A stretch of DNA of 64,000 nt from an uncultured Actinomycetota bacterium. Lineage in GTDB: Bacteria > Actinomycetota > Actinomycetes > Actinomycetales > CAWJMD01. The DNA is taken from positions 1,612,459 through 1,676,458 of the forward strand of contig OY969553.1 in assembly GCA_963700925.1 (NCBI GenBank), read 5' to 3'. The notes below the pieces were generated by a model. It made no database searches. It was not told where the DNA came from and worked only from the letters and a program-made list of their open reading frames with translations. This document shows, piece after piece, positions 2,446 to 19,180 of the stretch (position 1 is the stretch's first letter; each line of letters begins with the position of its first letter). Position numbers and translations under genes: made by a program.

Positions 2446-4569
2446 ATGCTGCACCAGGCGATGCTCAGGCCCTCCTCACACTCCCGGCCGCGCAAGGGAC
2501 TGCTCGCCGTTTCCGCCGTGGCGCTGATGAGCTCTCTCGGCACTCCGGCCGTCCAAGCGGCAGCCCCACCACCGGGTTTCAGCGACGTCACTGCCTACAC
2601 CGTCACGAACCCGACGGCGCTGGCGTCGACTCCCGACGGTCGCCTGCTCATCACGCAGGACGCGGGCCAGCTGCGGGTGGTCCGCAACGGAACGCTGCTC
2701 ACCGCCCCCGCCGTCAACCTCCAGCCGCGCGCCTGCGCCGAAGGCGAGCGTGGGCTGATGGGGGTGGCCGTCGACCCGGCGTTCTCGACGAACTCGTTCA
2801 TCTATCTCTTCTGGACGTTCAACAAGCAGCAGTTCTGCGGCGAGGGCACGCCCCAGACGCCGGTGAACCGCGTGACGCGGTTCGTACTGGGGGCCGACGA
2901 CCGCGTCGTCGCCGGCACCGAACGCGTGATCGTCGACAACATCCCCTCGCCCAGCCGCAACCACCAGGCCGGAGACCTGCGTTTCGGCTCCGACGGCTTC
3001 CTGTACGTCACCACCGGGGATGGCGGCTGCACCATCGGCAGCCCGACGGCGTGCGGGGGACTGAACACCAACAGCCGGCGCCTCGACATCCTCAGCGGCA
3101 AGGTGCTGCGGGTCCGGCGCGACGGCACCATTCCGGCCAGCAACCCGTTCGCCGCCACGACAGGCGGCCGTCGCTGCGGGAATCCCGCGGGAGTGCCCGC
3201 GGGCACCGGCCGGTGCCGCGAGACCTTCGCCTCGGGCTTCCGCAACCCGTTCCGATTCGCCGTGCGTCCCGGCACCAGCAGCTTCCTGGTCAACGACGTG
3301 GGACAGGACACGTGGGAGGAGGTCGACGCGCTCGTGGCCGGTCGCGACTACGGCTGGAACGTCCGTGAGGGCAACTGCGTTCGCGACTCCACGACCAACT
3401 GCGGCGCCACCCCGTACGAGAACCCGATCTTCTCCTACAGCCACGCCGACGGCTGCTCGTCGATCACCGGCGGCGCCTTCGTGCCCGAGGGTCTCTGGCC
3501 GGCGCCCTGGAACGGGTCGTACATCTTCGCCGACTACGTGTGCGGCGGCATCTACCGGATGGCGCCCGCGACCGGCGGCGGCTACACCCGCGAGCCGTTC
3601 CTTCCTGACGTCGCGGGCGCTGTGCACCTGGCGTTCGCGCCGTTCACTGGCGGCACCGGAGGCACGGCCCTCTACTACCTCGACTACTTCGGCAACGCCA
3701 TCCACCGTGTGACCTACGGAGACACCAACACTCAGCCGACCGCGAGCTTCACCAACCGTCCTGCCGGGCTGCAGGTGAGCTTCGACGGCAGCGCGAGCCA
3801 GGACGCCGACCCGGGCGACTCCATCGCCGAGTACAGATGGATGTTCGGAGACGGCACGACGGCGACGACCACGACGCCGACCGTCAACCACACCTACGCA
3901 ACGGCCGGCACGCGTACCGCGACACTCCGGGTCGTGGACTCCTCGGGGCTCGTGTCCGCCGCCGTGACCCGTCCGGTCTATGCCGGAGAGTGGCCGCCGG
4001 AGATCACGGTTGCATGGCCGGCCACCACGGCGCGCTTCACCGTCGGCCAGTCCGTCACGCTGACCGCCACGGCCCGCGATACCGAGGACGGCACCCTGCC
4101 CGGCTCGGCCATCACGTGGACCGCGCAACGGCGTCACGGCACGCACTTCCATCCGTACGCGGGGCCACGCACCGGTTCGTCGTTCACCTTCACCTACCCC
4201 GCCCCGGAGAACCTCGCGGCCGCCGCGAACAGCCACATCTTCGTGACCGCGACCGCGCGCGACTCCCGTGGCCTGACCACGTCGTCGAGCCGGGATCTGC
4301 TCCCCCGCACGGTGGCGCTGTCCTTCGCCACCTCGCCGGCCGGCGGTTCGGTGCTCGTCGAAGGGACAGCGCGCACGACGCCGCTGACACTCACCTCGTG
4401 GGTGGGCGGCCCGGTGCAGGTCAACGTGCTCAACCAGACCATTGGCGGTGTGCCGCACGTCTTCTCGTCGTGGTCCGACGGCGGCACGCGCGCCCACCGC
4501 ATCACCTCGCCCGCGACGGCGACGACGTACACCGCGCGTTTCGTCCCCGGAACCGGTACGGCCCGTTGA
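2446..4569 (+). CDS. PQQ-dependent sugar dehydrogenase (soluble glucose/sorbosone dehydrogenase beta-propeller family) with C-terminal PKD and Ig-like regions, secreted
   Basis: 707-aa ORF. Signal-like N-terminus (LLAVSAVALMSSLGTPAVQAA). Family motifs GERGLMGVAVDPAF, HQAGDLRFGSDGFLYVTTGDGG, GFRNPFRF, DVGQDTWEEV..GRDYGWNVREG. PKD segment VSFDGSASQDADPGDSIAEYRWMFGDGTT..HTYATAGTRTATLRVVDSSG. Confidence 0.85.
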   Translation: MLHQAMLRPSSHSRPRKGLLAVSAVALMSSLGTPAVQAAAPPPGFSDVTAYTVTNPTALASTPDGRLLITQDAGQLRVVRNGTLLTAPAVNLQPRACAEGERGLMGVAVDPAFSTNSFIYLFWTFNKQQFCGEGTPQTPVNRVTRFVLGADDRVVAGTERVIVDNIPSPSRNHQAGDLRFGSDGFLYVTTGDGGCTIGSPTACGGLNTNSRRLDILSGKVLRVRRDGTIPASNPFAATTGGRRCGNPAGVPAGTGRCRETFASGFRNPFRFAVRPGTSSFLVNDVGQDTWEEVDALVAGRDYGWNVREGNCVRDSTTNCGATPYENPIFSYSHADGCSSITGGAFVPEGLWPAPWNGSYIFADYVCGGIYRMAPATGGGYTREPFLPDVAGAVHLAFAPFTGGTGGTALYYLDYFGNAIHRVTYGDTNTQPTASFTNRPAGLQVSFDGSASQDADPGDSIAEYRWMFGDGTTATTTTPTVNHTYATAGTRTATLRVVDSSGLVSAAVTRPVYAGEWPPEITVAWPATTARFTVGQSVTLTATARDTEDGTLPGSAITWTAQRRHGTHFHPYAGPRTGSSFTFTYPAPENLAAAANSHIFVTATARDSRGLTTSSSRDLLPRTVALSFATSPAGGSVLVEGTARTTPLTLTSWVGGPVQVNVLNQTIGGVPHVFSSWSDGGTRAHRITSPATATTYTARFVPGTGTAR

Positions 4570-5834
4570 CGGCAGGGACCAACTGGGCCGGCAACGTCGC
4601 CTTCTCTGCGGTCGGGCGACCGCGGCCGACGTCGGTCGCGGAGCTGCAGCGGGTCGTGGCTCGAGCGGCAAGGGTGCGAGCGCTCGGCACCGGCCACTCG
4701 TTCAACCGGATCGCTGACACCACAGGCGATCTCGTGTCGTTGGACGCGTTGCCACACACCATCGAGGTCGACTTGGATCGCCTCCAGGTCGAGGTGGGCG
4801 GCGGCGTGCGGTACGGCGAGCTCGGTCACGAGCTCGAGCGCCGAGGGTTGGCACTGCCCAACACAGGTTCTCTGCCGCACATCTCCGTGGCCGGTGCTTG
4901 CGCCACCGGCACTCACGGTTCGGGCGTCGGCAACCAGACCTTGGGGGCGCGCGTCCGGGCGTTGTCACTCGTGACAGCCTCCGGCGACGTGGTCACCCTC
5001 GAACGGGAGGCCGGCGACGAGTTCGACGGCGTCGTCCTTGCACTAGGACGGCTGGGCGTCGTGGTGTCTCTCGTCCTCGATCTGGTTCCGACGTTCCAGG
5101 TTGCCCAGACCGTGGTGGACGACGTCGACGACGCGGTGCTGGCAGACGGTCTCGGGGCGATCCTCTCGGCCGCATACTCCGTCAGCATCTTCACCGGCTG
5201 GGGCGCAGAAGGGCGGAACCAGGTCTGGGTCAAGGAGCGCGTCGACCGGCCAGATGCGTGGCAGGGCCAGACGCTCTGGGGAGGGCGGGCCGCGGAGGTC
5301 GAGCGACATCCGATCACCGGGATGCCCCCAGGAAACACGACGGCTCAGCTCGGTGCCCCTGGCCCGTGGAACGAGCGGCTCCCGCTGTTTCGCCTCGAGT
5401 TCATGCCGAGCAGCGGCGACGAGCTGCAGTCCGAGTACCTGCTACCGCTCGAGCACGCCGGGTCTGCCTGGCACGCCCTGTCCGACATGCGGGAGTTCCT
5501 GCGGCCGGTCGTCCAGATCTCCGAGATCCGCGCCGTTGCTCCCGACTCGATGTGGCTGAGCATGACCGGCGGTCTGCCCAGCGTCGCCTTCCACTTCACC
5601 TGGGTGCCGGACAAGATGGCCGTTGCCCCGAGAGTCGCGGAGGTTGAGGAGCGCCTGCAGCCGTTCGCGGCGCGACCACACTGGGGAAAGGTCTTCAGCA
5701 TGACCCCTGCGGCCTTGGCCCGCCTCTACCCACACCTTCCGGACTTTCGCCGTCTGGTCGTGGACGCGGACCCGACAGGAAAGTTCGGCAACGACCTGGT
5801 CGATGGCTGGATCGGCTTGGCGTCCGAGGCCTAG
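4566..5834 (+). CDS. FAD-dependent alditol (xylitol/sorbitol) oxidase, VAO family
   Basis: Real part of track ORF 3837..5834. TTG 4566 overlaps the upstream stop (TTGA, 4566-4569). The sequence TNWAGNVAFSA..LGTGHSFN..LPHISVAGACATGTHGSGV..PGPWNERLPLFRLEFMPSSGDELQSEYLLP..ARPHWGKVF tracks the Streptomyces alditol oxidase sequence as I remember it. Confidence 0.85.
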   Translation: MTAGTNWAGNVAFSAVGRPRPTSVAELQRVVARAARVRALGTGHSFNRIADTTGDLVSLDALPHTIEVDLDRLQVEVGGGVRYGELGHELERRGLALPNTGSLPHISVAGACATGTHGSGVGNQTLGARVRALSLVTASGDVVTLEREAGDEFDGVVLALGRLGVVVSLVLDLVPTFQVAQTVVDDVDDAVLADGLGAILSAAYSVSIFTGWGAEGRNQVWVKERVDRPDAWQGQTLWGGRAAEVERHPITGMPPGNTTAQLGAPGPWNERLPLFRLEFMPSSGDELQSEYLLPLEHAGSAWHALSDMREFLRPVVQISEIRAVAPDSMWLSMTGGLPSVAFHFTWVPDKMAVAPRVAEVEERLQPFAARPHWGKVFSMTPAALARLYPHLPDFRRLVVDADPTGKFGNDLVDGWIGLASEA

Positions 5835-6406
5835 CGCAGCTGGCGGCGCATCACCACACGGGTGGGAGACCGGCGGACCACTTCTTTGAAACCGGCTCTC
5901 TCGTAAAGGCTTCGCGAGCCGAAGAACATGAAGTCGTCGTGACTTCGCTCCGGCTTGTCGACCGGGTAGGCCTCGAGTATCCGGACGCGCTGTTCCCTCG
6001 CGTAGCGAACCGCCGCTCGGAGAAGTCGGTGCTGGACGCCCTGACCGCGGTATGGCTTGGCCACGAACGTGCACACGATCGACCACACCTCCTTGTCGTC
6101 CACCGGCTTCATGATCCGAGACCGTCGGAGCTTCTCGTAGTCACCGCGGGGACCGAGGCTGATCCACCCGGCTGGTGACCCGTCCACGTAGCCGACCAGG
6201 CCGGGGACGACGCCGGTGTCGACGAGCTCGCACAGCTGCCGCTTGTTGTCCTCTCCCGCAGCGGCACTGACGGACACCATCCCGCTCCTGCGGTAGTACA
6301 TGCACCAGCAGCCACGCACGATGGAACCACCGGGGAGGTCGAACACTGCCTCCAGGTCGGCCAAGGTCCCGGGCGTCAGCGGTTTGGCGTCGAAGGCGAC
6401 GGCCAT
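5831..6406 (-). CDS. GNAT family N-acetyltransferase
   Basis: 191-aa ORF starting at ATG 6406. Acetyl-CoA binding-type segment VAKPYRGQGVQHRLLRAAVRYAREQ and C-terminal LYERAGFKEV. Starts 9 nt after the stop of the upstream gene, so it may be the last gene of the 14546->6416 operon. Its stop overlaps the convergent oxidase stop (CTAG at 5831-5834). Confidence 0.8.
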   Translation of the reverse strand: MAVAFDAKPLTPGTLADLEAVFDLPGGSIVRGCWCMYYRRSGMVSVSAAAGEDNKRQLCELVDTGVVPGLVGYVDGSPAGWISLGPRGDYEKLRRSRIMKPVDDKEVWSIVCTFVAKPYRGQGVQHRLLRAAVRYAREQRVRILEAYPVDKPERSHDDFMFFGSRSLYERAGFKEVVRRSPTRVVMRRQLR

Positions 6407-6415
6407 GCAGCCACG

Positions 6416-7048
6416 CTAGCTTCCGCCGCGCGTCAGACCCAGGGTCGCCAACAGGTCCTCATGCAACTCGAACCAGACCGTGTGGCACGAGTCCATCTTC
6501 GGCTCGTCCACCCACTTCCGTTCTCCCCTGTCGACCCGGGCGAGCGCGGCACTGAAGCGGTCGGCGTACCCCGCGAAGCGAGAAAGCTTCGCGGACAGGC
6601 GTTCCTCGATGGGCCTCAGCCTTCGCGACAGGCCGGCCAGGCCGTTGAGCACGCCCTCGTCCCAAGGCCAGTCGCTGTGATCGTTAGACGCCATGGGATC
6701 CCGGGCCGTCGGGCGGATCTGCCAACGAGTGATCGCATCGAGCAGTCTGGCGTTCAAGGGGACGAAGGCAGCGTGCGCCTCGACAACGACGGCACGGCCG
6801 TCCGCCTCCCGCAGCTCCCCTGCGAGCAGCCGCTCGTCGCGCTCACGTCCCGCCGGCGTGAGGGACCAGCTGCGCAGGTCCGCGAACTCCACCTTCTGCA
6901 CCAGACCCGCGGCCTCGTAGTCCAGCAGGTGCTCCTGAACAGCCGCACGGTCCAACGAGTATCGCCGCGTGACGACGTCCTCGTCCGCCATGCCCTTGAT
7001 GCGGACCGCATGCAGGACGAGCAGCTCAACCGACGACGGAAAGGACAT
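6416..7048 (-). CDS. Hypothetical protein with N-terminal winged-helix-like segment (operon gene E)
   Basis: In-frame ATG at 7048 (MSFPSSVELLVLHAVRIKGMADEDVV..LLDYEAAGLVQKVEF..WSLTPAGRERDE), 4 nt after the TPR gene stop (7053). The longer track ORF (to 7198) would overlap the TPR gene. The wHTH call is motif-level only. Confidence 0.65.
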   Translation of the reverse strand: MSFPSSVELLVLHAVRIKGMADEDVVTRRYSLDRAAVQEHLLDYEAAGLVQKVEFADLRSWSLTPAGRERDERLLAGELREADGRAVVVEAHAAFVPLNARLLDAITRWQIRPTARDPMASNDHSDWPWDEGVLNGLAGLSRRLRPIEERLSAKLSRFAGYADRFSAALARVDRGERKWVDEPKMDSCHTVWFELHEDLLATLGLTRGGS

Positions 7049-7052
7049 CGGC

Positions 7053-10000
7053 CTACGACTTCGCGCCGGCTCCCTGTCGGACGTCGACCTCCGTGGCCCA
7101 GGGCGGCTCGTCGGGAAAGGCCAGCTGCTCGTGGTTCCACTCCGACTCGACGAGCCGGAGCTCCTCCTGCAGCCGTCCGTGGAGCCAGCTCGCGGCACCT
7201 TGCGTGACGTCCGGGAGGCTCGGTCTTGACACCAGGAAGTCGTCGAGGGCGATGAGCAGCGTTCCTCTCCTCATCGGTGGCACCTCGCGAACGAGGTCCT
7301 CGATCGCCCTGACGGCGTAGGAGCGTGCCTGTGACGTCTGCTTCGCGCCCAGGGCTGCCAGGGCCAGGTCGAAGAGCGTGCCGGAGGTCTGTTCCGCATA
7401 GAGGAGCACGTGGTGGAGGGCGCTGGCCGCCTCGGAGTACCGGCCCAGCCGGAAAAGGCACCAACCTTCGAGGGCGGACGAGGTCCAGTCCGTGGAGACC
7501 TGCCTCCGCAGCGTCCCCAGGACCGACTCGTACTCGGCCAGCGCTTCCTCGCGCCTGTCCAGCAGGACAAGCGAGTTCGCCCGACCCTTGCGGGCCCACA
7601 GGTCGCCGTCGTCCAGTCGCAGAGCCTCGTCGTACGCCTCCAGGGCGGCCGTGGCCCTGTCCGGCCGATCCGAGTGCTCCAGTGCCCAGCCCAAGGACTG
7701 GTACGCGTTCGGCTGCTGCCACTCGCACTTCGTGGACCTGCCGGCGGCAAAGATGGCCTCTTCCCATCCACCGACGCGCGTAGCCACCGCACTGACGACG
7801 ATCCATCCCGCGGGGTTGTCCTCGTTTCGCTTCACGGCTCGGAGCGAGATGTCCCATGCCCCACCGATGTCCCCAGAGTTCAGCAGGGCATAGGCGAGGT
7901 CGACGAACGACTCGACGCCACCTCCCGAGGGGAGGGCCTCGGCCAGGTCTACGGCGCGACGGAAGCAGTCCAGGGCCTCCTCGACCCGATTGACGAGAGT
8001 CAGCACCGAGCCCATCGCACTCAGACCTCGCAGGTCATCCGGCCTGATCCACAGGGCCTGGTCCAGTGCTGCCAAGGCCTCGTCGGTCCTGCCGGCACCA
8101 CGCAACGCCCCTGCGTAGCTGATCAAGAGGTCGGCGTCCTGCTCGTCCTCGTTCAGGGCGGCCCGATACACCTCGACCGCTTCCTCGGCGCGGCCCGACG
8201 CGAGCAGCAGATCGGTGAGATGTGAGGCAGCGAATGAGTTTCTGGGTTCGATCGCCAGGGCCTGCCGCAGGGCCTTTTCGCCCTCCTCGGCGTCACCCTG
8301 GGAGCTCAGGACGGCGCCTCGCGAACCCAGCGCCCAGGCAGAGTTCGGCTCCTGCTCCAGGGACTTGTCCAGCCAGTTCAACGCCTCCTCATAGTGACCT
8401 TGGACGCGATGGATCTCACCGAGAAGGCGCCAGGCTCTGACTCCCCATTCCGGGCTGGACGCCAAGCGCTCCGCTTCGGACCCGGCAAGCTGGAACTGCT
8501 TGAGGTTCATCAAGGCACTGGCGTGGAGGTACCTCGCCATCTCGTCGTTCTCGTCGCGCCGCAGCGACTCCTCGCTGAAGGTCCGCGACTCCTCAGCGCG
8601 GTCGGTGTCGATCAGGTACTCCGCGAGCTCGTTCCGCACGTCACGCAGCTCCGGGTCCAGCTGAAGGGCCTTGCGGAGCATTCGCTCAGCCTTTTCAGGA
8701 TGCCCTTCCTGCTTGCGAATCTCGGCGCGCATCAACCAAGGACGAGCACTCGTGGCATCGAGCTTGGCCAGCGCCTTCAAGGCGATGTCGGCTCGCTTGT
8801 AGTCGTCTGCTCCGAGGTAGGCGTTCACCAACAGGTCGTGCATCCAGACCGACTGCGGAGAGATCTTGGTGGCCGCCTCGATGTTGCTGATCGCCTCCTC
8901 GGTTCGCTCGCCGATCGCCAGCAGTGCTTGACCACGGCTGGCGAGGGCGTAGGAGTCCGAAGCATCGAGGTCGAGCGCGGAGTCGAAGTGGGTGACGGCC
9001 TCCTTGAGCCGCCCCTGCAGTCGCAGTGACTCGCCGAGAAGCTCGTGCAGAAGCGGTGCTGATCGGTCCACTTCCAAGGCCGCTTCCAGCAGCTCCTGCG
9101 CGCGCGTCCAGGATGCCGGGTCCTTTTCGATCAGCAGCAGACCAGCCAGGTCTGCGCGGGTCGCTACCGATGCCGGCTCGAGCTCAAGGGCCTTCTCGTA
9201 CGCGTGCTTCGCTCTCGCGGTGTCGTCTGTCGCGACCTCCGCTCGGGCCAGGTTGACCCATACCCACGCCGCTCCAGCGTCCATCTCGACGGCTCGTCGC
9301 AAGTGGTGGCGCGCCTCCTCCGCGTTCCCCGAGTCGAGCAGCAGCTTTCCCAGGAGCGCATGGGCAACGGAATACTCCGGGTGTTCCGCGATCAGTGTCA
9401 GCAGGTCGTCGCGCGCGCGGTCGCCACTCCCGAGCACAGCCAGCGCATTGGCCCGACGTGCGCGCCTCCAGGGGGATGGATCGAGTGCGGCAGCCGCTTC
9501 GAACTGGTGCAGGGCCGCCTCGTGGCTCCCGGACTCAGCGAGGGCCTCCCCCAGGAGGCCGCGAAGCACAGGTGAGTTGGGATCTACCTCTGCCGCTTCC
9601 GTCAGTGCCAGGGCGGCTTCCGGGGCTCGACCGATCCTCAGGAGCCCGAGCCCCCGGTAGGCAGCGGCGGCGGGGAGCCCCACCACGGCCATTCGCTCGG
9701 AGAGACCCAGCAGCTCCTCGAACCGCTCAGCGGATTGAAGGACGTACGCATGCCGCTCGAGCAGGTCGGTGTCCTCGGGCGAGAGGTCCAGTGCGGCCGA
9801 GGACGCCTCGATGGCCTCGTCGTGACGTCCAAGAGACGTCAGGATCTCTGCGGCGAGCATTGACGTCGCCGACTGCGGCTCGATCTCATTCAGCTCTCGG
9901 AGGGTGTCCAGGGCGGCCATCGCGTGGCCGGCCCTCGCCTGCGCCACTGCGAGCCAGTAGTGCGTCTGCGGAGATGGGTCCAGGTCATGGACGCGACGGA

Positions 10001-10718
10001 TGGCGTCCAAGGCGGCGTCGTGCCGGTCGGCATCTGCGAGAGCGAGCCACGCGCCTCGCCAGTGCTCTGCCCGCGTCTCGTCGCTCTCCCCCAGATCATC
10101 CGCGAGGCGCGCCATCAGGATCCACGCCCGCCAGTCGTGGACGGCACGGGGAACGGCCTGCTGCAGGTACTCGTAGGCTTCGTGCTGACGTCCCTGCTCG
10201 GCGATTGCGGTGGCAAGGTGGCGACGCAGGTCGGGCGTGTCCTCGCCTTGTTCGAACGCGAGGTGCAGGACGGTCTCCGCCTCGGCCTGCCGACCGACGC
10301 CCAGCAGCGCGACGCCCCGTGCATAGGTCACGACGCCACGCCGAACGGCCGAACCGCCGTCATCGAACGCCTGCAGAGCCTTCACAAAGGCCTCCCGGGC
10401 GCGCTCCGCCTCGCCGCGCTCGGCCAGCGCCCGTCCATCCAGCACGTAGGCCGAACCCTGCAGGGCAAGCCCTTCTGCCGGCAGACGTCGCCCCGGGGAG
10501 GTGGACGAGGGGCTCAGCTCACGCAGCACCTCGAGAGACGTCGCTTCAGCGAGCTCCAGGTCTCCAGCTTGGAGGGCGGCCCTTCCCTCGCTGAGGCGGG
10601 ACCACAGCTCGGGGTCGAATGCACTTTCCTGGTCGCGCTGCCGTGCGGCGTACGGCGGACTGGTCGGCCAGGCTGGAGCGGGTACGACAGCATCCCCCTG
10701 GGCTCCCCGCCCCGTCAT
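7053..10718 (-). CDS. Very large all-TPR repeat protein, 1221 aa (operon gene D)
   Basis: Track ORF 7053..10841. I prefer ATG 10718, which forms ATGA with the upstream stop (10715-10718) and has AGGAGG 6 nt upstream. The sequence is TPR-like helical hairpins (A..A...Y..AL.L.P) from end to end. I recognised no enzymatic, NTPase or TM region. Confidence 0.85.
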   Translation of the reverse strand: MTGRGAQGDAVVPAPAWPTSPPYAARQRDQESAFDPELWSRLSEGRAALQAGDLELAEATSLEVLRELSPSSTSPGRRLPAEGLALQGSAYVLDGRALAERGEAERAREAFVKALQAFDDGGSAVRRGVVTYARGVALLGVGRQAEAETVLHLAFEQGEDTPDLRRHLATAIAEQGRQHEAYEYLQQAVPRAVHDWRAWILMARLADDLGESDETRAEHWRGAWLALADADRHDAALDAIRRVHDLDPSPQTHYWLAVAQARAGHAMAALDTLRELNEIEPQSATSMLAAEILTSLGRHDEAIEASSAALDLSPEDTDLLERHAYVLQSAERFEELLGLSERMAVVGLPAAAAYRGLGLLRIGRAPEAALALTEAAEVDPNSPVLRGLLGEALAESGSHEAALHQFEAAAALDPSPWRRARRANALAVLGSGDRARDDLLTLIAEHPEYSVAHALLGKLLLDSGNAEEARHHLRRAVEMDAGAAWVWVNLARAEVATDDTARAKHAYEKALELEPASVATRADLAGLLLIEKDPASWTRAQELLEAALEVDRSAPLLHELLGESLRLQGRLKEAVTHFDSALDLDASDSYALASRGQALLAIGERTEEAISNIEAATKISPQSVWMHDLLVNAYLGADDYKRADIALKALAKLDATSARPWLMRAEIRKQEGHPEKAERMLRKALQLDPELRDVRNELAEYLIDTDRAEESRTFSEESLRRDENDEMARYLHASALMNLKQFQLAGSEAERLASSPEWGVRAWRLLGEIHRVQGHYEEALNWLDKSLEQEPNSAWALGSRGAVLSSQGDAEEGEKALRQALAIEPRNSFAASHLTDLLLASGRAEEAVEVYRAALNEDEQDADLLISYAGALRGAGRTDEALAALDQALWIRPDDLRGLSAMGSVLTLVNRVEEALDCFRRAVDLAEALPSGGGVESFVDLAYALLNSGDIGGAWDISLRAVKRNEDNPAGWIVVSAVATRVGGWEEAIFAAGRSTKCEWQQPNAYQSLGWALEHSDRPDRATAALEAYDEALRLDDGDLWARKGRANSLVLLDRREEALAEYESVLGTLRRQVSTDWTSSALEGWCLFRLGRYSEAASALHHVLLYAEQTSGTLFDLALAALGAKQTSQARSYAVRAIEDLVREVPPMRRGTLLIALDDFLVSRPSLPDVTQGAASWLHGRLQEELRLVESEWNHEQLAFPDEPPWATEVDVRQGAGAKS

Positions 10719-12193
10719 GATCCGCCTCCTGCATCCCTGGTCCGCCGATCCCTGGCGGGGGGAATGCGACCTTCCCAGATCTCCGTCACGCCGGCTGCCA
10801 GCACGTCTGGCTCGCGTTCCTTGTCCAGGCGAGCGGCCCATGCCGCATTGAGGATCTCGAGAAGGTCGTCAGGGCTGTCCAGCAGTGGGCTCTTCTGACC
10901 ACCGAGAAGGGAAACCTTGCGCTTCACGACCTGCGACCACTGAGAGTCCGTGAACGCTGCGATCGCCAAATTCGATCTGAGGACGACGAGAACGTCTCTC
11001 TGGAAGTCATCGAGCCAGTCTTCCTCAGGCTTCGGAGCGAGTTCTCGTTCTGCCTCTTCCTGACGCGCCGGGCCTGCGAGCGTGGTGACGGCGTCGCGCC
11101 AGATCCCGTCCAGCTTTCGGATGGTGGTGGCGAATCCGGTGTCCGGGTCCCCAGCGTTGGAGCGGAGGACCCCCAGGATCAGCCGAGCGCGGTCGACGTC
11201 GCGCGCCTGATCAGGTTGCGACGCCTCGTCGTGGTGGGGCTGCAAGCGCAGGAGGAGGGCTGCACAGCCGTACGCCGGGCCCATCGTGAACGCAGCAAAG
11301 GCGTCACCGACCAGTTCGGAGAAGGTGGTTGTTGCGCCCAATCCGTCCTGGCCACCCCACTTGCCCAGAAGCCCTTGCACCCCTTCCTCGTTCTTGTCCG
11401 CGCACAGCGCAAGACCCACCTCGTGCGCGACGAGGGGGATGCCCCATACGGACCACTCCGGGAAGCCGAGCTTGACCACGCTGTCCATGGCGCTGCTGAG
11501 GGCAGCCTGCGCCGCCGGGATCGGGAAGAAGTGAGTGACGATGGCGGTGAAGCTTCGGAGCAGAACCTCGGTCATCTCGCACACGCGGTCGTCCAGACCG
11601 GTGTCGCGAACCGTCAGACCACCGAGAAAGTCGACGTACTCACGAAACAGCGGTTGCGCCTCTTCCACGAGCATCGTCTCAAAGCGCTGCCAGAGAACTC
11701 GCTGGTCCCCGGCCGACCCGTTGCCCACATCCTGCTCCAGGACAGAAATGGTCCGGTAGAGCTTGTCGCATCGGCTACTGAGGCTGTTCTCGAGCTGGGC
11801 CGACCGGCCGCTCAGATCCACCATGTTCTTCTGGATCCCCAGGAGCTTGTCGCGAGCTTCGCGCAACTGCTCCTTGATTCCCTCGAACTCCTGAGGAGCT
11901 ACCTCCAAACGCTCGAGCAGGACGGACCCTGGCACGGCCCCCTGGGCGTTCTTGATCTCCTGCGCGATGTCGTCATAGTCACCGAGCAGGTCCCGGAGGC
12001 TGAACACCAGATTGCTGAGGGTGCTCAGAGGGGTGAGAACACCCTGCGAACCGGTCATACCAATGAGGCGCGCGACTTCGAGGATCTGGACGTCTCTGCC
12101 GTTGACCAACGTGACGGCCGTCTGCACCTTTCCCACGTCACTTCGCAGGGTTCTGAGCCTCAGCTTGAGCAGCTCTTGCGCCGGTGTGCTCAT
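10715..12193 (-). CDS. Paralogue of the HExxH protein with degenerate metal-binding motif (HEVGL) and coiled-coil-like N-terminal extension (operon gene C)
   Basis: ATG 12193 forms ATGA with the upstream stop (12190-12193), with GAGGAGG 7 nt upstream. It aligns to gene B: LGFPEWSVWGIPLVAHEVGLALC vs LKFPGTTAWHLPVLAHEYGHHAV; SELVGDAFAAFTMGPAYGCAALLLRLQP vs NEYVADMFATFALGTAYPLTCIALRIDP; ILNAAWAAR vs VLDAAWRWR. Confidence 0.8.
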   Translation of the reverse strand: MSTPAQELLKLRLRTLRSDVGKVQTAVTLVNGRDVQILEVARLIGMTGSQGVLTPLSTLSNLVFSLRDLLGDYDDIAQEIKNAQGAVPGSVLLERLEVAPQEFEGIKEQLREARDKLLGIQKNMVDLSGRSAQLENSLSSRCDKLYRTISVLEQDVGNGSAGDQRVLWQRFETMLVEEAQPLFREYVDFLGGLTVRDTGLDDRVCEMTEVLLRSFTAIVTHFFPIPAAQAALSSAMDSVVKLGFPEWSVWGIPLVAHEVGLALCADKNEEGVQGLLGKWGGQDGLGATTTFSELVGDAFAAFTMGPAYGCAALLLRLQPHHDEASQPDQARDVDRARLILGVLRSNAGDPDTGFATTIRKLDGIWRDAVTTLAGPARQEEAERELAPKPEEDWLDDFQRDVLVVLRSNLAIAAFTDSQWSQVVKRKVSLLGGQKSPLLDSPDDLLEILNAAWAARLDKEREPDVLAAGVTEIWEGRIPPARDRRTRDAGGGS

Positions 12194-13431
12194 CTCCGTG
12201 CCTCCTCGGACCCTGCGGGAGAGAGCACTGGCAGACCCTTCCCTGCGGTTCGGCACCAGCTGAGCACCGTCGTGTTGACGCGTCGTAGCTCAGACGCGTC
12301 CGCCGCCCAGTTGGCGCGACGCCAGCGCCACGCCGCGTCGAGCACCGTTGGCACCCCTGCCTCCTCGAGCTCGCGCGGCGCCCCGTCCCCCGCAACCAGG
12401 CGATCCTTCAGCGCGACCGCAAGGTCGGCATCGTCGTAGAGCAGCCCATCGGTGTGGCGCAGGAGCTCGACGACGACGCTCTCGGCGAGCTGCCGCAGGA
12501 TCGCGGCTTGATCGTCCGCATGGTGGCCGGCGAAGCGCGCCCAGAGGGGCCGGACGACCTCAGCCGCCATGGCGGCGTGCTGATCTTGGCCGGTGCGCGC
12601 GCTGATGGCCTCGAGCGTCGCGGCCATCGCCTCCACACGGCGAAACCACACCGGATGGCTGTCACTCTGGCGCGCCGCCTTGCCCGGGTCGATCCGCAGC
12701 GCGATGCACGTGAGCGGGTACGCGGTGCCGAGGGCGAAGGTCGCAAACATGTCCGCCACGTACTCGTTGACCTGTGACCGTGCCGCACGAAGCGCTGCCG
12801 CGCGGGCGTGTGACGTGGCCGCCGATTGGGCATTCGGCGCCTGGGCCAGGGCGACCTCCGACACGACGGCAGCCTCACGCTCGACGACGTCGTAGAGCGG
12901 TCGGACTTCTCGGGCCCCTTCGTTGATGCTGTACAGGTTGCTCACGGCGTGGTGCCCGTACTCGTGCGCAAGCACCGGGAGGTGCCAAGCAGTGGTGCCA
13001 GGAAACTTCAGGCGCAGCATCGACACGACCGGATCCATGGTCTCTGCGTCGGGGGAGAGTGCCAGCACCACTGGGCGGCGGATCAGTGAGTGGGCCTGCA
13101 GGTGTGATGCCAGCCGGTCGGCGGCGTCGAGAAGCGCGCCGTCGTACCCCTGTTCCCGGAAGAGCGTCGTCTGGACGAGGCTGAAGAGCTCCGTCCGCAC
13201 TCTCGCCGCTCGTTTGCGCGCATCGCCGAATGCGACCCAGTCCACCCCATCCTGCTGCAGGGACAGGTCTTTCCGGCAGTCGCGAATCAGAGCGCGGACC
13301 TCACCCGCGGAGCTGGCCGGCAGGATGTCGCGCAGGTGCGGAGTGTCAAGGAAGGCCTCCGCACGCTCCAGGTCGTCGAGCTCGACAGCCAGTCGAGCGG
13401 CGTAGAGCTGTTCAGCCTCAGGGATCGTCAC
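12190..13431 (-). CDS. HExxH...ExxAD metallopeptidase-like protein (M48/M56-like motif arrangement) (operon gene B)
   Basis: Track ORF 12190..13443 (TTG start). GTG 13431 would give a GTGA overlap with the upstream stop (13428-13431); the start is uncertain between the two. Intact HEYGH, followed about 65 aa later by NEYVADMFA, which resembles the third-ligand ExxAD signature of M48-type peptidases. Confidence 0.75.
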   Translation of the reverse strand: MTIPEAEQLYAARLAVELDDLERAEAFLDTPHLRDILPASSAGEVRALIRDCRKDLSLQQDGVDWVAFGDARKRAARVRTELFSLVQTTLFREQGYDGALLDAADRLASHLQAHSLIRRPVVLALSPDAETMDPVVSMLRLKFPGTTAWHLPVLAHEYGHHAVSNLYSINEGAREVRPLYDVVEREAAVVSEVALAQAPNAQSAATSHARAAALRAARSQVNEYVADMFATFALGTAYPLTCIALRIDPGKAARQSDSHPVWFRRVEAMAATLEAISARTGQDQHAAMAAEVVRPLWARFAGHHADDQAAILRQLAESVVVELLRHTDGLLYDDADLAVALKDRLVAGDGAPRELEEAGVPTVLDAAWRWRRANWAADASELRRVNTTVLSWCRTAGKGLPVLSPAGSEEARR

Positions 13432-14546
13432 GCGGGTACCCAAGCATCGCGCACCACGACGCGCACTCCCGGAACGAAACCAGGAATCGGTCGGGCGTCG
13501 GTGTAGTCCAGGCCCAGCAGGAGGACGGCGGCAGCCACGAGGAGGAAGGCACCGGCCGTCACCAGCGCGAGGTGAGGTACGCCAAACCCCAAGAACGACA
13601 CGAGAACTGACACTGATCCGATCGCGGTGACGATGCCCGACGCGATCTTCATCAGCGACGAGTACCGCTCGCCCAGTCCACGTAGGGCACCCACCGCGAG
13701 GTCCAGTCGTTCGAGTCTTGCCTGCGGGTGGGGCAGCTGCAGTGCGTACTTCCGCACGTCCTCGACGCCGATCAGCCAGCCGAGCACCGCCGGCGCGGGC
13801 TCGCCCGCCTGCAGGCGTGCGGCCAGTGTGCGCATCTCTTCCTTGGCCTCCCGCAAGAGGTTGATGGGGAAGAGTCGCGTCAGCACGGTCAGGGCTTTGT
13901 CGATGGTCGCGAGACCCAGCTTCGTGAGCCGTTGAGCGTTCTGGCCGAAGTCGAGCTTGCTTCCGAGCTGGTCGATCAGCTCGCTGAGCTTGCCCGGTGC
14001 GCGAGCGAGGACGGCGGTCATGGCCTCGGTCACCACGCCGGCAGACGCCTCCGCGAGCTCTTCGAGGGTCGCGTCGAGCTGCTGGGTCAGACGCTCGGCG
14101 GCCTGCGTGAGGTCGGCCGAGGGCTCGACTGGTTCGAAGCCCTGGCTGTGGGCTTCAGGCCTGGCCCGGTCGTCGAGACTGTCAGCGACCTTGTTCAGCG
14201 TGGTCACGGCCTCGCCCAGTGCCTGGTCGTCCCTGGCCACGCCGCCCTCACCGAGAGCCTGCCCGGCGGCGAGCAGGGCATTGCCGATGGACAGGTCAGC
14301 GAGGACCTCGGCGAGGACGTCGTCCTCAGTCACGCCCTCCTCGGCGGCCGGGCCTGTCTCATCCTCGGCGTCCTCGAACCGCTGGGGGCCAGGCATGTCA
14401 CTACCGAGGCGGCGGCGTGCGATGACTTCGAGTCGCTCCACGATCAGCGGGTCGGGAACAGGCGACGTGGCGAGTGCTCTCTGGAGCAAAGCAGATCCGT
14501 TTGCGACGGACCGAGTGGATTCGGCCAGGGCCATCATGTGCGTCAT
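13428..14546 (-). CDS. Acidic helical protein with two C-terminal transmembrane helices (operon gene A)
   Basis: 372-aa ORF from ATG 14546 (alternative ATGs at 14537/14534). The C-terminus has two hydrophobic stretches, IASGIVTAIGSVSVLVSFLGF and LALVTAGAFLLVAAAVLLLGL. The rest is Ala/Leu/Glu-rich and helix-like. I recognised no family. Confidence 0.7.
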   Translation of the reverse strand: MTHMMALAESTRSVANGSALLQRALATSPVPDPLIVERLEVIARRRLGSDMPGPQRFEDAEDETGPAAEEGVTEDDVLAEVLADLSIGNALLAAGQALGEGGVARDDQALGEAVTTLNKVADSLDDRARPEAHSQGFEPVEPSADLTQAAERLTQQLDATLEELAEASAGVVTEAMTAVLARAPGKLSELIDQLGSKLDFGQNAQRLTKLGLATIDKALTVLTRLFPINLLREAKEEMRTLAARLQAGEPAPAVLGWLIGVEDVRKYALQLPHPQARLERLDLAVGALRGLGERYSSLMKIASGIVTAIGSVSVLVSFLGFGVPHLALVTAGAFLLVAAAVLLLGLDYTDARPIPGFVPGVRVVVRDAWVPA

Positions 14547-14787: not shown

Positions 14788-15129
14788 GTGTCAAGCGTTC
14801 TGGTCAACTGCAGCTACTGCGAAGCCACTTCTGACGTTCCCGCGGCCGGCGTCCTCCTCGACATCCAGGCCGCCGCCCTGAGCTGGGTCTGTCTCGAGTG
14901 CGGTGAGCTCGACGAGCAAGACGTTCCGCCACACATGCTGCAGAAGCTCATCGACGTTGGCGCGTCGCTGATCACGTCCGACGTGGGAAGCCTTCCGCCG
15001 CACCCCGAGTCCCCGCCCCACGGCGAGCCGCTCACTCACGACGACCTTCTCGACCTCCACGAGCTGCTCGAGGAGCCGTCCTGGCTCATTCGGCTCGAGG
15101 GCACGTCACATCAATGCAATTCGGACTGA
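14788..15129 (+). CDS. Small zinc-ribbon-like protein (CxxC...CxxC), hypothetical
   Basis: GTG 14788 preceded by GGGAGGA. N-terminal CSYC..(23 aa)..CLEC pair, and an acidic C-terminus. Transcribed divergently from the 14546 operon across a 241-bp intergenic region. Confidence 0.6.
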   Translation: MSSVLVNCSYCEATSDVPAAGVLLDIQAAALSWVCLECGELDEQDVPPHMLQKLIDVGASLITSDVGSLPPHPESPPHGEPLTHDDLLDLHELLEEPSWLIRLEGTSHQCNSD

Positions 15130-17554: not shown

Positions 17555-19180
17555 ATGAGCGTTGTCGACCAGCTTGTCGAAGGTCGCGAGGCCTTCGAGC
17601 GGCGAGAGTGGGTGGCCGCGTACGACCGGCTGTCCGCTCTCGACCGCGAGCAGCTCAGTTCGGACGACATGCTGCGGCTCGCCATGGCCGCCCACCTGTC
17701 CGGCGACGACGACGCCTTCGTCCGCGCGCTGCAGCAGGCGTTCCAGGCCGCGCAGGACGCCGGCGAGCCGCTCGTGGCGGTGCGAATCGCGTTCTGGCTG
17801 GGCCTGGTCTTGATCACCGGGGGCGACTTCGCGGTGGGCGGAGGCTGGGTAGCCCGCGCCCAGCGACTGCTCGCGGACGAGCCGAACGACGTCGTGGAGC
17901 GCGGCTACCTGCTGGTCCACGAGATGTTCCAGCACATCGGCCAGGGCGACTTCCCCGGTGCGATGGAGATCGCTCCCCGCATCACCGAGTACGGACGGGT
18001 GTTCAAGGACGCGGACCTGCTCGCCCTTGGCCTGTGCAGCGAGGGCCGGCTGGTGCTCTACTCGGGCCGGGTGGCGGAAGCTCTCGCGCTGCTGGACGAG
18101 GCCATGGTCGAGGTCACGAACTCCGCGGTCACCCCGGTGACCGCGGGCACCGTGTACTGCTCGATGATCGAAGCCTGTCAGGAGATCTCCGACTTCGCCC
18201 GGGTCGCGCAGTGGACTGACGCGCTCACGCGATGGTGCGAGTCACAGCCCGACCTGGTTCCGTTCACGGGGCAGTGCGCGGTGCATCGAGGTCAGGTCAT
18301 GCGCGCGCACGGGGCCTTTCCCGCAGCGCTCGAAGAACTCGACCACGCGTACCGGCGCTACACCCAACGCGGCCAGCCACCTGCTGCCGGTCTGGCGCTC
18401 GCCGAACGCGGAGACATCCTTCGGATGATCGGGGACTACCGCGACGCCGATGCCGCGTACTCGCAGGCGAGCACCTACGGGCACGACCCCCAGCCCGGGC
18501 TCGCTCTGCTCTGGCTCGCACAGGGGCGTCAGGCGGCAGCCGTCGGAGCGGTTCGACGGCTCTTGCAGGAGACGGGCAACCCGGTCCACCGCTCACAAGT
18601 CCTTCCTGCCGCCGTTGACGTTCTGCTGGCTGATGGCGACGTCGACGCGGCGAGGTCAGCCATGCAGGAGATGGCCCACATCTCGGAGACCTTCGGCTGC
18701 ACCACCCTTCGGGCCCGCGCGGCTTACAGCGCAGGGTGCGTCCACCGTGCCGAAGGTGACCACGCCCTCGCACTCGCTGAACTACGGCGCTCTTGGCAGA
18801 TGTGGTCCGGGCTCGACTCACCGTACGAGGCCGGCCGGGCGCGACTCATGATCGGCCGCGTCCTGCGGGAACTGGGCGACGAGGACTCGGCGACTGCCGA
18901 GTTCACAGCTGCGCGGGCGACCTTCGCCCAGCTCGGCGCCCAGCCCTGCCTGCGCGAGGTGGAAGACCTGCTGCCGAGGAACCTGCCGGGCGGACTGACG
19001 GCACGCGAGGTAGAGGTGCTGCGGCTCGTCGCGGTCGGCAAGAGCAACCCAGCCATCGCGGCCGAGCTGGTGCTCAGCGAGAAGACCGTGGCGCGCCACC
19101 TGAGCAACATCTTCGGCAAGATCGACGTGTCGTCGCGAACCGCCGCCGCGGCATACGCCTTCGAGCACCGGCTGATCTGA
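17555..19180 (+). CDS. LuxR-family transcriptional regulator with large helical-repeat N-terminal domain
   Basis: 541 aa. C-terminal LuxR HTH LTAREVEVLRLVAVGKSNPAIAAELVLSEKTVARHLSNIFGKI. I saw no P-loop. Confidence 0.85.
   Translation: MSVVDQLVEGREAFERREWVAAYDRLSALDREQLSSDDMLRLAMAAHLSGDDDAFVRALQQAFQAAQDAGEPLVAVRIAFWLGLVLITGGDFAVGGGWVARAQRLLADEPNDVVERGYLLVHEMFQHIGQGDFPGAMEIAPRITEYGRVFKDADLLALGLCSEGRLVLYSGRVAEALALLDEAMVEVTNSAVTPVTAGTVYCSMIEACQEISDFARVAQWTDALTRWCESQPDLVPFTGQCAVHRGQVMRAHGAFPAALEELDHAYRRYTQRGQPPAAGLALAERGDILRMIGDYRDADAAYSQASTYGHDPQPGLALLWLAQGRQAAAVGAVRRLLQETGNPVHRSQVLPAAVDVLLADGDVDAARSAMQEMAHISETFGCTTLRARAAYSAGCVHRAEGDHALALAELRRSWQMWSGLDSPYEAGRARLMIGRVLRELGDEDSATAEFTAARATFAQLGAQPCLREVEDLLPRNLPGGLTAREVEVLRLVAVGKSNPAIAAELVLSEKTVARHLSNIFGKIDVSSRTAAAAYAFEHRLI

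Follow-up and report, generated by a model that had tools for sequence, protein, structure and literature searches.

The stretch of DNA analyzed here (the window) comprises 64,000 nucleotides of contig OY969553.1 from an uncultured Actinomycetota bacterium, and all coordinates of genes, motifs and junctions given below for this organism are positions in it. It contains a cassette of four consecutive genes, A, B, C and D, all located on the minus strand according to the open reading frame (ORF) list. The two central genes encode true paralogues, B with and C without an intact putative zinc peptidase active site, and both the paralogy and this split into a live and a dead member are near certain from the sequence comparisons. 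B is most likely the catalytic subunit, a putative soluble enzyme with the full zincin motif set, and one to three of the four putative metal-site residues are gone from C, which retains the surrounding scaffold. The four genes most likely encode a membrane-tethered protease complex, scaffolded by tetratricopeptide repeats (TPR), with one live and one dead subunit, a composite reading that we judge slightly likelier to be right than wrong.

The B protein shows three motifs, all encoded, like those of C, on the minus strand. HEYGH (12952-12966) would supply the two zinc-binding histidines and the catalytic glutamate (H160, E161 and H164, putative by motif), and NEYVAD (12751-12768), 67 residues past the first histidine, contains the putative third zinc ligand, E227, as well as D231. 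The original prediction for this DNA had described these two motifs and had overlooked the third one, HPVWFRR (12637-12657), which is an HPxxxxR motif (H263, P264 and R269) and the counterpart of the region around BepA His-246. In a residue census of 173 B-type sequences, in which rows gapped at a position were ignored, the HExxH and downstream ExxAD proved near-invariant: H160, E161, H164 and D231 are each present in 171/171 and E227 in 170/171, and H263, P264 and R269 in 172/172 each. The B locus-pair set (25 sequences from 24 genome loci and the window, including some duplicates) shows HExxH, ExxxD and HPxxxxR in 24/24 of the sequences covering those motifs, and all three are also kept at 6/6 metagenome loci. 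The AlphaFold2 (AF2) model of B, with a predicted local distance difference test score (pLDDT) of 94.1 and a predicted template modelling score (pTM) of 0.92, places HEYGH inside a helix (residues 156-169) that comes after strands 126-130, 135-137 and 142-146. Strand-strand-strand-helix before HExxH is the usual zincin topology, and the succession in the model as a whole (helix, three strands, HExxH helix, then the helix bearing E227) is that expected of a gluzincin core; most of B is modelled as a large helical bundle without known relative. No hydrophobic segment, signal peptide or membrane helix was found in B by hydropathy.

In C, the corresponding positions are degenerate. HEVGL (11411-11425) has Leu in place of the second zinc-binding His, ELVGD (11303-11317) matches the position of the B ExxAD, and QARDVDR (11189-11209) matches that of HPxxxxR, with the His gone and the Arg retained. 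Across a census of 88 C-type sequences, the position of the first His is occupied by H in 74/88 and that of the catalytic Glu (E279) by E in 84/88. At the position of the second His, the loss of which the original prediction had reported, L is found in 66/88 and H in just 5/88, so the loss is not a strain-specific decay. The Glu-ligand position shows E in 34/88 and Q in 24/88, and the HPxxxxR counterpart shows His in 4/88, Pro in 66/88 and Arg in 86/88. The change of AD to GD, to which weight had been given, is peculiar to the lineage of the window: most C orthologues show ExxAD or xxxAD, and the Asp is present in 81/88. At the genome and metagenome loci examined, the HP histidine is absent from every gene 2 (the C-type gene, gene 1 being the B-type), and the first motif takes the forms HEVGL, HEVAH, REIGL, REAGA, YEFGH, FDVGR, KDAGL, HQFAD, HHAGA and HD---. 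Without the second His and the HP His, and often without the Glu as well, C probably cannot hold a catalytic zinc in the normal way. The AF2 model of C (pLDDT 85.1) shows long N-terminal helices (25-212), although the extra N-terminal helical region relative to B measures about 90-110 amino acids and not the approximately 200 first proposed. C shows no hydrophobic segment by hydropathy.

The relationship between both proteins is detected by pairwise BLASTP (E=5e-7, 23% identity over 158 amino acids, in a stretch that includes HExxH and ExxAD), and alignment of the family profiles with hhalign gives a probability of 100% and E=1e-56 over 335 columns, joining B 45-407 with C ORF residues 155-504, which is nearly the whole B length. 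These alignment checks bear out the paralogy put forward in the original prediction, whose enzyme/degenerate split also holds in the orthologous pairs of the genome and metagenome loci, with few exceptions on the C side. A neighbour-joining tree of 25 loci, built on the 330 columns shared by both families, separates a clade of 25 gene-1 sequences from a clade of 25 gene-2 sequences, and both clades have a similar (mirrored) internal topology that groups by genus. As every B falls in one clade and every C in the other, a single ancient duplication is indicated. The gene-2 sequences of L029 (HEYGH), L019 (YEFGH) and L032 (HQFAD) stand together at the base of the C clade. The few deep-branching C members with HExxH indicate that the motif was lost stepwise after the duplication, and the basal placement of L029 agrees with a stepwise decay that began with the HP histidine. 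Both families also have in common a helix-turn block, E-x-L-x-F-x-x-G-x-L-x-R-x-x-G-L-D-x-x-x-C-x-x-x-D-x-L-L, which lies away from the metal site (B residues 85-115, about 13099-13191; C ORF residues 206-233, about 11558-11641; minus strand). It is the best-conserved block of C and a candidate interface between B and C or between B/C and D.

The missing catalytic residues, and nothing else, would favour C being a decaying duplicate, either a pseudogene in progress or a strain-specific loss. Against this, mean pairwise identity over 300 locus pairs is 0.295 for B and 0.294 for C (r=0.91 between them), and this equal divergence indicates that C is constrained as much as B and is no pseudogene. 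The C genes of the different phyla fall into a single clade, a 33-sequence C alignment has 13 invariant columns, and C has the GC pattern of coding DNA. Its ORF is intact at the loci examined except two, L011, where it is split in two, and L024, where the copy is disrupted at the ExxAD region. The clade structure, the equal divergence and the invariant columns rule out the pseudogene reading, to which we leave a negligible probability. That C is conserved as strongly as B and carries a long helical extension argues instead for a role as non-catalytic partner.

The B and C ORFs of the original prediction were found at their coordinates on the minus strand, and the peptides quoted from them were verified, including LDAAWRWRR in B (12316-12342) and LNAAWAARL in C (10826-10852). 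The ORF bounds were exact; the real starts are later, at GTG 13431 for B and ATG 12193 for C, as judged from four-base start/stop overlaps and the gene calls of a public contig. Gene A (13428..14546, about 369-372 amino acids, delimited by its ORF and the public-contig gene call) is the first gene of the cassette. It is followed by gene B (12190..13431, 413 amino acids, GTG start; maximal ORF 12190..13443), gene C (10715..12193, 492 amino acids, ATG start; maximal ORF 10715..12256) and gene D (7053..10718, 1221 amino acids, ATG start), the last one. Each junction is a four-base start/stop overlap: GTGA between A and B (13428..13431), ATGA between B and C (12190..12193, with GGAGG-like sites upstream) and ATGA between C and D (10715..10718, with AGGAGG 7 nt upstream). 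The public contig, which encodes an identical protein, has independent calls of 369, 413, 492 and 1221 amino acids with the same overlaps. In this high-GC DNA (0.66-0.72 in the window), the cassette has an overall GC of about 0.64-0.69, and the GC contents of the third, first and second codon positions rank GC3>GC1>GC2 in A, B, C and D, the pattern of genuine coding DNA. GC3 is 0.78-0.81 in A-D versus 0.83-0.86 in the adjoining genes and up to 0.93 elsewhere in the window, a slight oddity that could mean an older horizontal acquisition.

Relatives of B and C are numerous and unannotated. A word-indexed search returned five relatives of B and 67 of C, all unnamed or "hypothetical", and an exhaustive search with the B profile returned 1,169 cluster representatives at E<=1e-3 (138 at E<=1e-30), a count that probably includes C-type as well as B-type paralogues. 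Scanning one genome per species, seeded with a 7-sequence alignment, gave 21 loci in Cellulomonas, four Kribbella, Umezawaea, five Nonomuraea, Actinoplanes and Nocardioides, and in further taxa that include Propionibacteriales, Streptosporangiaceae, Acidimicrobiia, Chloroflexia and Acidobacteriaceae. A scan of metagenomes, started from distant B sequences, added six loci with GC from 39% to 71%. The loci thus belong to Actinomycetota, Chloroflexota and Acidobacteriota, together with lower-GC metagenome contigs. A C-type gene directly follows the B-type gene at all 30 loci, which are the 24 genome-derived ones (L001-L024) and the six from metagenomes. The order A-B-C-D on one strand is kept over these loci apart from exceptions that concern A or D, and the genes that flank the cassette vary between genomes. 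No copy of the cassette was found on viral contigs or plasmids, and literature searches returned nothing on it.

A is the only one of the four proteins with membrane segments. It is helical and ends in a pair of hydrophobic helices (hydropathy peak 2.72, residues 297-351; 13494..13658, minus strand), which are two predicted membrane helices with GVPH between them. B, C and D are probably cytoplasmic, since they show no hydrophobic segment (in D, too, by hydropathy). The A orthologues vary in their N-terminal half, which nevertheless contains a pair of short xGF[ED] motifs; P-S-x-D usually comes after the second. In the window they are found at 14373-14381 (residues 56-58, RFE) and 14133-14141 (residues 136-138, GFE) on the minus strand, within variable linkers, and they look like linear docking or cleavage sites. 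Kinship of A with B, with C or with the C N-terminal extension was also considered and was rejected (hhalign probability <1%). A lies upstream of B in most loci. In the Chloroflexia metagenome-assembled genome (MAG) of locus L021 (7014-13388, 13865-15151), a methyladenine glycosylase gene directly precedes B, and an ORF for a matrixin/astacin-like metallopeptidase lies just downstream of D.

Matches to TPR families, with E-values as low as 1e-52, extend over the D protein from about residue 200 to 1180. D comes after C in 23/24 genome loci and in 5/6 metagenome loci, and follows C at all readable loci except one, which is acidobacterial. In that Acidobacteriaceae MAG, the D position is occupied by a 1,928-residue ORF (L022:10266-16049, plus strand) that has a weak TPR match and a KaiC-like ATPase domain (PF06745, E=1.5e-33).

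In the composite reading, B and C derive from one ancient duplication within an unannotated family of probable soluble, cytoplasmic, M48-like gluzincins, and A, B, C and D, produced together from one operon, would most likely be assembled at the inner face of the membrane. B would be the catalytic subunit, a zinc endopeptidase to judge from its motifs. C would be a non-catalytic pseudopeptidase that binds B, in the way of other live/dead protease pairs such as TldD/E or the M16 alpha/beta enzymes, controls its access or activity, and positions, gates or feeds substrate to it. A may act as the membrane anchor or as the substrate, and D as a scaffold or, through its TPR array and in the manner of the BepA TPR, as a receptor of substrate or signal. 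The complex itself is the weak link of this reading. A narrower version, in which D and C gate an M48-like B that cleaves A at the xGF[ED] linkers, as a proteolytic-signalling or abortive-infection switch, we rate as unlikely.

Several observations weigh against parts of this picture. Against B being of the M48 kind, the score with Pfam M48 (PF01435) is 13.1 bits, below the gathering cut-off of 20.3 (E=0.086), Foldseek gives no match for B in the PDB, and HMMER searches of the PDB with the B profiles recover no M48 chain. Against the composite reading, on the side of C, HExxH is still present in the members L003/P0042, L024, L029 and L031. The copies of L029 and L031 also keep the Glu, with E or Y at the position of the HP histidine (gene 2 at 3495-5093 and 1863-2990, respectively), and the C-type P0070 (452 residues, from a 1.9-kb contig) keeps the whole triad as HELGH, EFLAD and HPADAKR. 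The dead state is thus not universal, and P0070 and the gene-2 copies of L029 and L031 may be active or half-active intermediates. Furthermore, no B-C fusion protein occurs among about 240 family members, and the Chloroflexia locus L021 shows B-C-D without A, so A is not obligatory.

The relation of B to M48 was examined at several levels. Searches against Pfam, NCBIfam, PADLOC and PHROGs gave no match for A, B or C. The sub-threshold Pfam M48 alignment of B covers profile positions 68-183 of 186 and contains all three motifs, and among 125 members the weak Pfam match that recurs most often is M48, ahead of other zinc peptidase families, with only 10/125 members reaching E<1 against M48. The spacings between the B motifs are 67 and 36 residues, compared with 59-83 and 43-54 in HtpX, BepA, LoiP and YcaL of E. 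coli. With hhalign, the B family aligns with a low-diversity set of 124 M48 sequences, mostly near-identical enterobacterial proteins, over 102 columns (P=4.7e-4, probability 32%), with all three B motifs in register with M48 (ExEAD, THPxxxxR); against a four-sequence alignment of E. coli M48 proteins, the HExxH helix alone is aligned. What B profiles made of 7, 125 or 30 (core-only) sequences recover from the PDB is either noise from coiled coils or, in unrelated zincins, the HExxH helix by itself. For C, its profile finds coiled coils only in the PDB, and Foldseek finds no PDB match. In the BepA study, the HP-motif His-246 is conserved across M48 and serves as a fourth zinc ligand and auto-inhibitory switch. 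The M48/M56-type assignment of the original prediction is thus weakly supported, with the three motifs in register with M48 on one side and the Pfam score, the low hhalign probability and the Foldseek search on the other. B carries HExxH on a helix after a small beta-sheet, the Glu in ExxAD and the HPxxxxR, and falls short of the Pfam gathering threshold; it is probably M48-like in its working and is not filed here as a member of M48.

These results also bear on the idea that B is not a peptidase, with a metal set that serves another hydrolytic or a structural purpose and an M48 likeness due to convergence. No peptidase family gave a significant match, by sequence or by structure, and this would fit it, as would the large helical bundle that makes up most of B. 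On the other hand, the three M48 motifs follow one another in the proper order at similar distances and are joined in one local alignment (P=4.7e-4), the strands and helix before HExxH are arranged as is typical of zincins, and the weak Pfam matches are nearly all to zinc peptidase families. We regard a non-peptidase B as very improbable.

C could also act independently of B, as a zincin fold that binds peptides (a substrate trap, an adaptor of D or an inhibitor), with B working alone or as a homo-oligomer. The retained "HE" dipeptide (E279) and its surrounding helix would suit binding without cleavage, C has a large helical extension of its own, and the lack of B-C fusions points the same way. 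The strict adjacency and co-inheritance of both genes at all 30 loci and the translational coupling at the B/C ATGA speak for a joint function, as does their correlated divergence, though shared ancestry alone also predicts the latter. An independent C appears distinctly unlikely.

A further explanation concerns the purpose of the cassette and is compatible with the enzyme/pseudoenzyme reading: a defence or conflict module in which D senses an invader protein, B/C is thereby activated and cleaves A, and the A hairpin damages the membrane (abortive infection). In its favour, the cassette is self-contained, lies in unrelated genomic neighbourhoods and occurs in several phyla. A D orthologue matches the Pfam family TPR-S ("TPR-Sensor") with 43 bits in L021 and faintly in L001, and D weakly matches TPR candidate models of PADLOC, although these TPR matches are generic, including those of D against PADLOC-DB 2.0. 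The KaiC-like ATPase at the acidobacterial D position, the possible use of the A xGF[ED] motifs for cleavage or docking and the GC3 of the cassette, slightly under that of its neighbours, are also in line with it. However, A, B and C have no PADLOC match, no known defence genes adjoin the cassette in the window, the viral contigs and plasmids searched lack it, and the mirrored, genus-grouped gene-1 and gene-2 trees are consistent with vertical descent, as far as trees not compared with a species tree allow. A defence role is, on this balance, doubtful.

The flanks of the cassette in the window are ordinary, with GNAT acetyltransferases, a flavin oxidoreductase and a LuxR-TPR regulator. A 260-residue ORF (6419-7198, minus strand) begins inside the 3' end of D, with an overlap of 146 nt if translation starts at GTG 7198. 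Its GC pattern is well in line with coding DNA, and a GNAT gene (5834-6415) comes after it; it shows no Pfam match, and at L001 and L003 it is not conserved downstream of D. On the other side, divergent from A, a 113-residue ORF (14788-15129, plus strand) with two CxxC pairs (NCSYCE...VCLECGE) has a zinc-ribbon look. The gene calls of the public contig (L035) include it, it has no Pfam match, and it is not beside the cassette in Kribbella L001, where a P450 gene precedes A. The regulator, located 3 kb upstream of the cassette (17555-19180, plus strand), has 541 residues with MalT-like TPRs and a C-terminal LuxR/GerE helix-turn-helix, without an ATPase domain.

Pairs of a live and a dead paralogue recur as a way to keep dangerous enzymes under control, and among bacterial metalloproteases few such cases are understood. 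The natural C variants form a mutational ladder in which the HP histidine only, one zinc ligand or all of them are lost, and which bears on each M48 signature residue, including the "histidine switch" of BepA. If the proposed history is true, the stepwise decay of C, first of the HP His and then of the zinc ligands, would be a record of a protease subunit becoming a regulator. If the cassette were a signalling or defence device, soil Actinomycetota, Chloroflexota and Acidobacteriota would have a new mechanism that works through a protease; were the cassette a housekeeping quality-control protease, it would still be a new M48-like branch missing from the standard libraries. Live/dead metalloprotease pairs and the combination of M48 with TPR are already known ideas; neither the libraries nor the literature searched contained this B family, its obligate dead partner or the A-B-C-D operon.

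Among known systems, the minigluzincins, a minimal M48/M56 scaffold, have a topology of a backing helix, three strands, the HExxH helix and the glutamate helix, and this order fits the secondary structure predicted by AF2 for B 104-238. B differs in an insertion of 40 residues between the active-site and glutamate helices and in its large flanking helical domains. The M16 pairs (mitochondrial MPP and bacterial M16B) consist of an active beta and an inactive alpha subunit, the dead one aids substrate binding, and the bacterial M16B pairs are often encoded side by side. They have in common with B/C the live/dead pair of paralogues, but show an inverted HxxEH motif, another fold and no TPR or membrane partner. 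In TldD/TldE, the metal site reportedly lies on TldD alone. TldD and TldE (PmbA) are described as two paralogous proteins that constitute one bacterial metalloprotease (PMC5810440). Their fold is unrelated to that of B/C, their motif is HExxxH, no sequence similarity between the two pairs was detected in this analysis, and tldD and tldE, unlike B/C, share no operon with TPR or membrane partners. In relation to M48 (BepA/YfgC, HtpX, LoiP, YcaL, Ste24 and OMA1), B has the same motif order (HExxH, the Glu in ExxAD about 60-80 residues further on, HPxxxxR) with similar spacing, but is soluble, apparently cytoplasmic and below the Pfam cut-off, about 250 additional helical residues surround its core, and it is adjoined by an obligate dead paralogue. 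The M48 domain of BepA is coupled to a TPR domain according to the BepA study, so that BepA and the cassette both bring together an M48-type protease and TPR, as a fused domain in BepA and as the separate D protein of 1,221 residues in the cassette.

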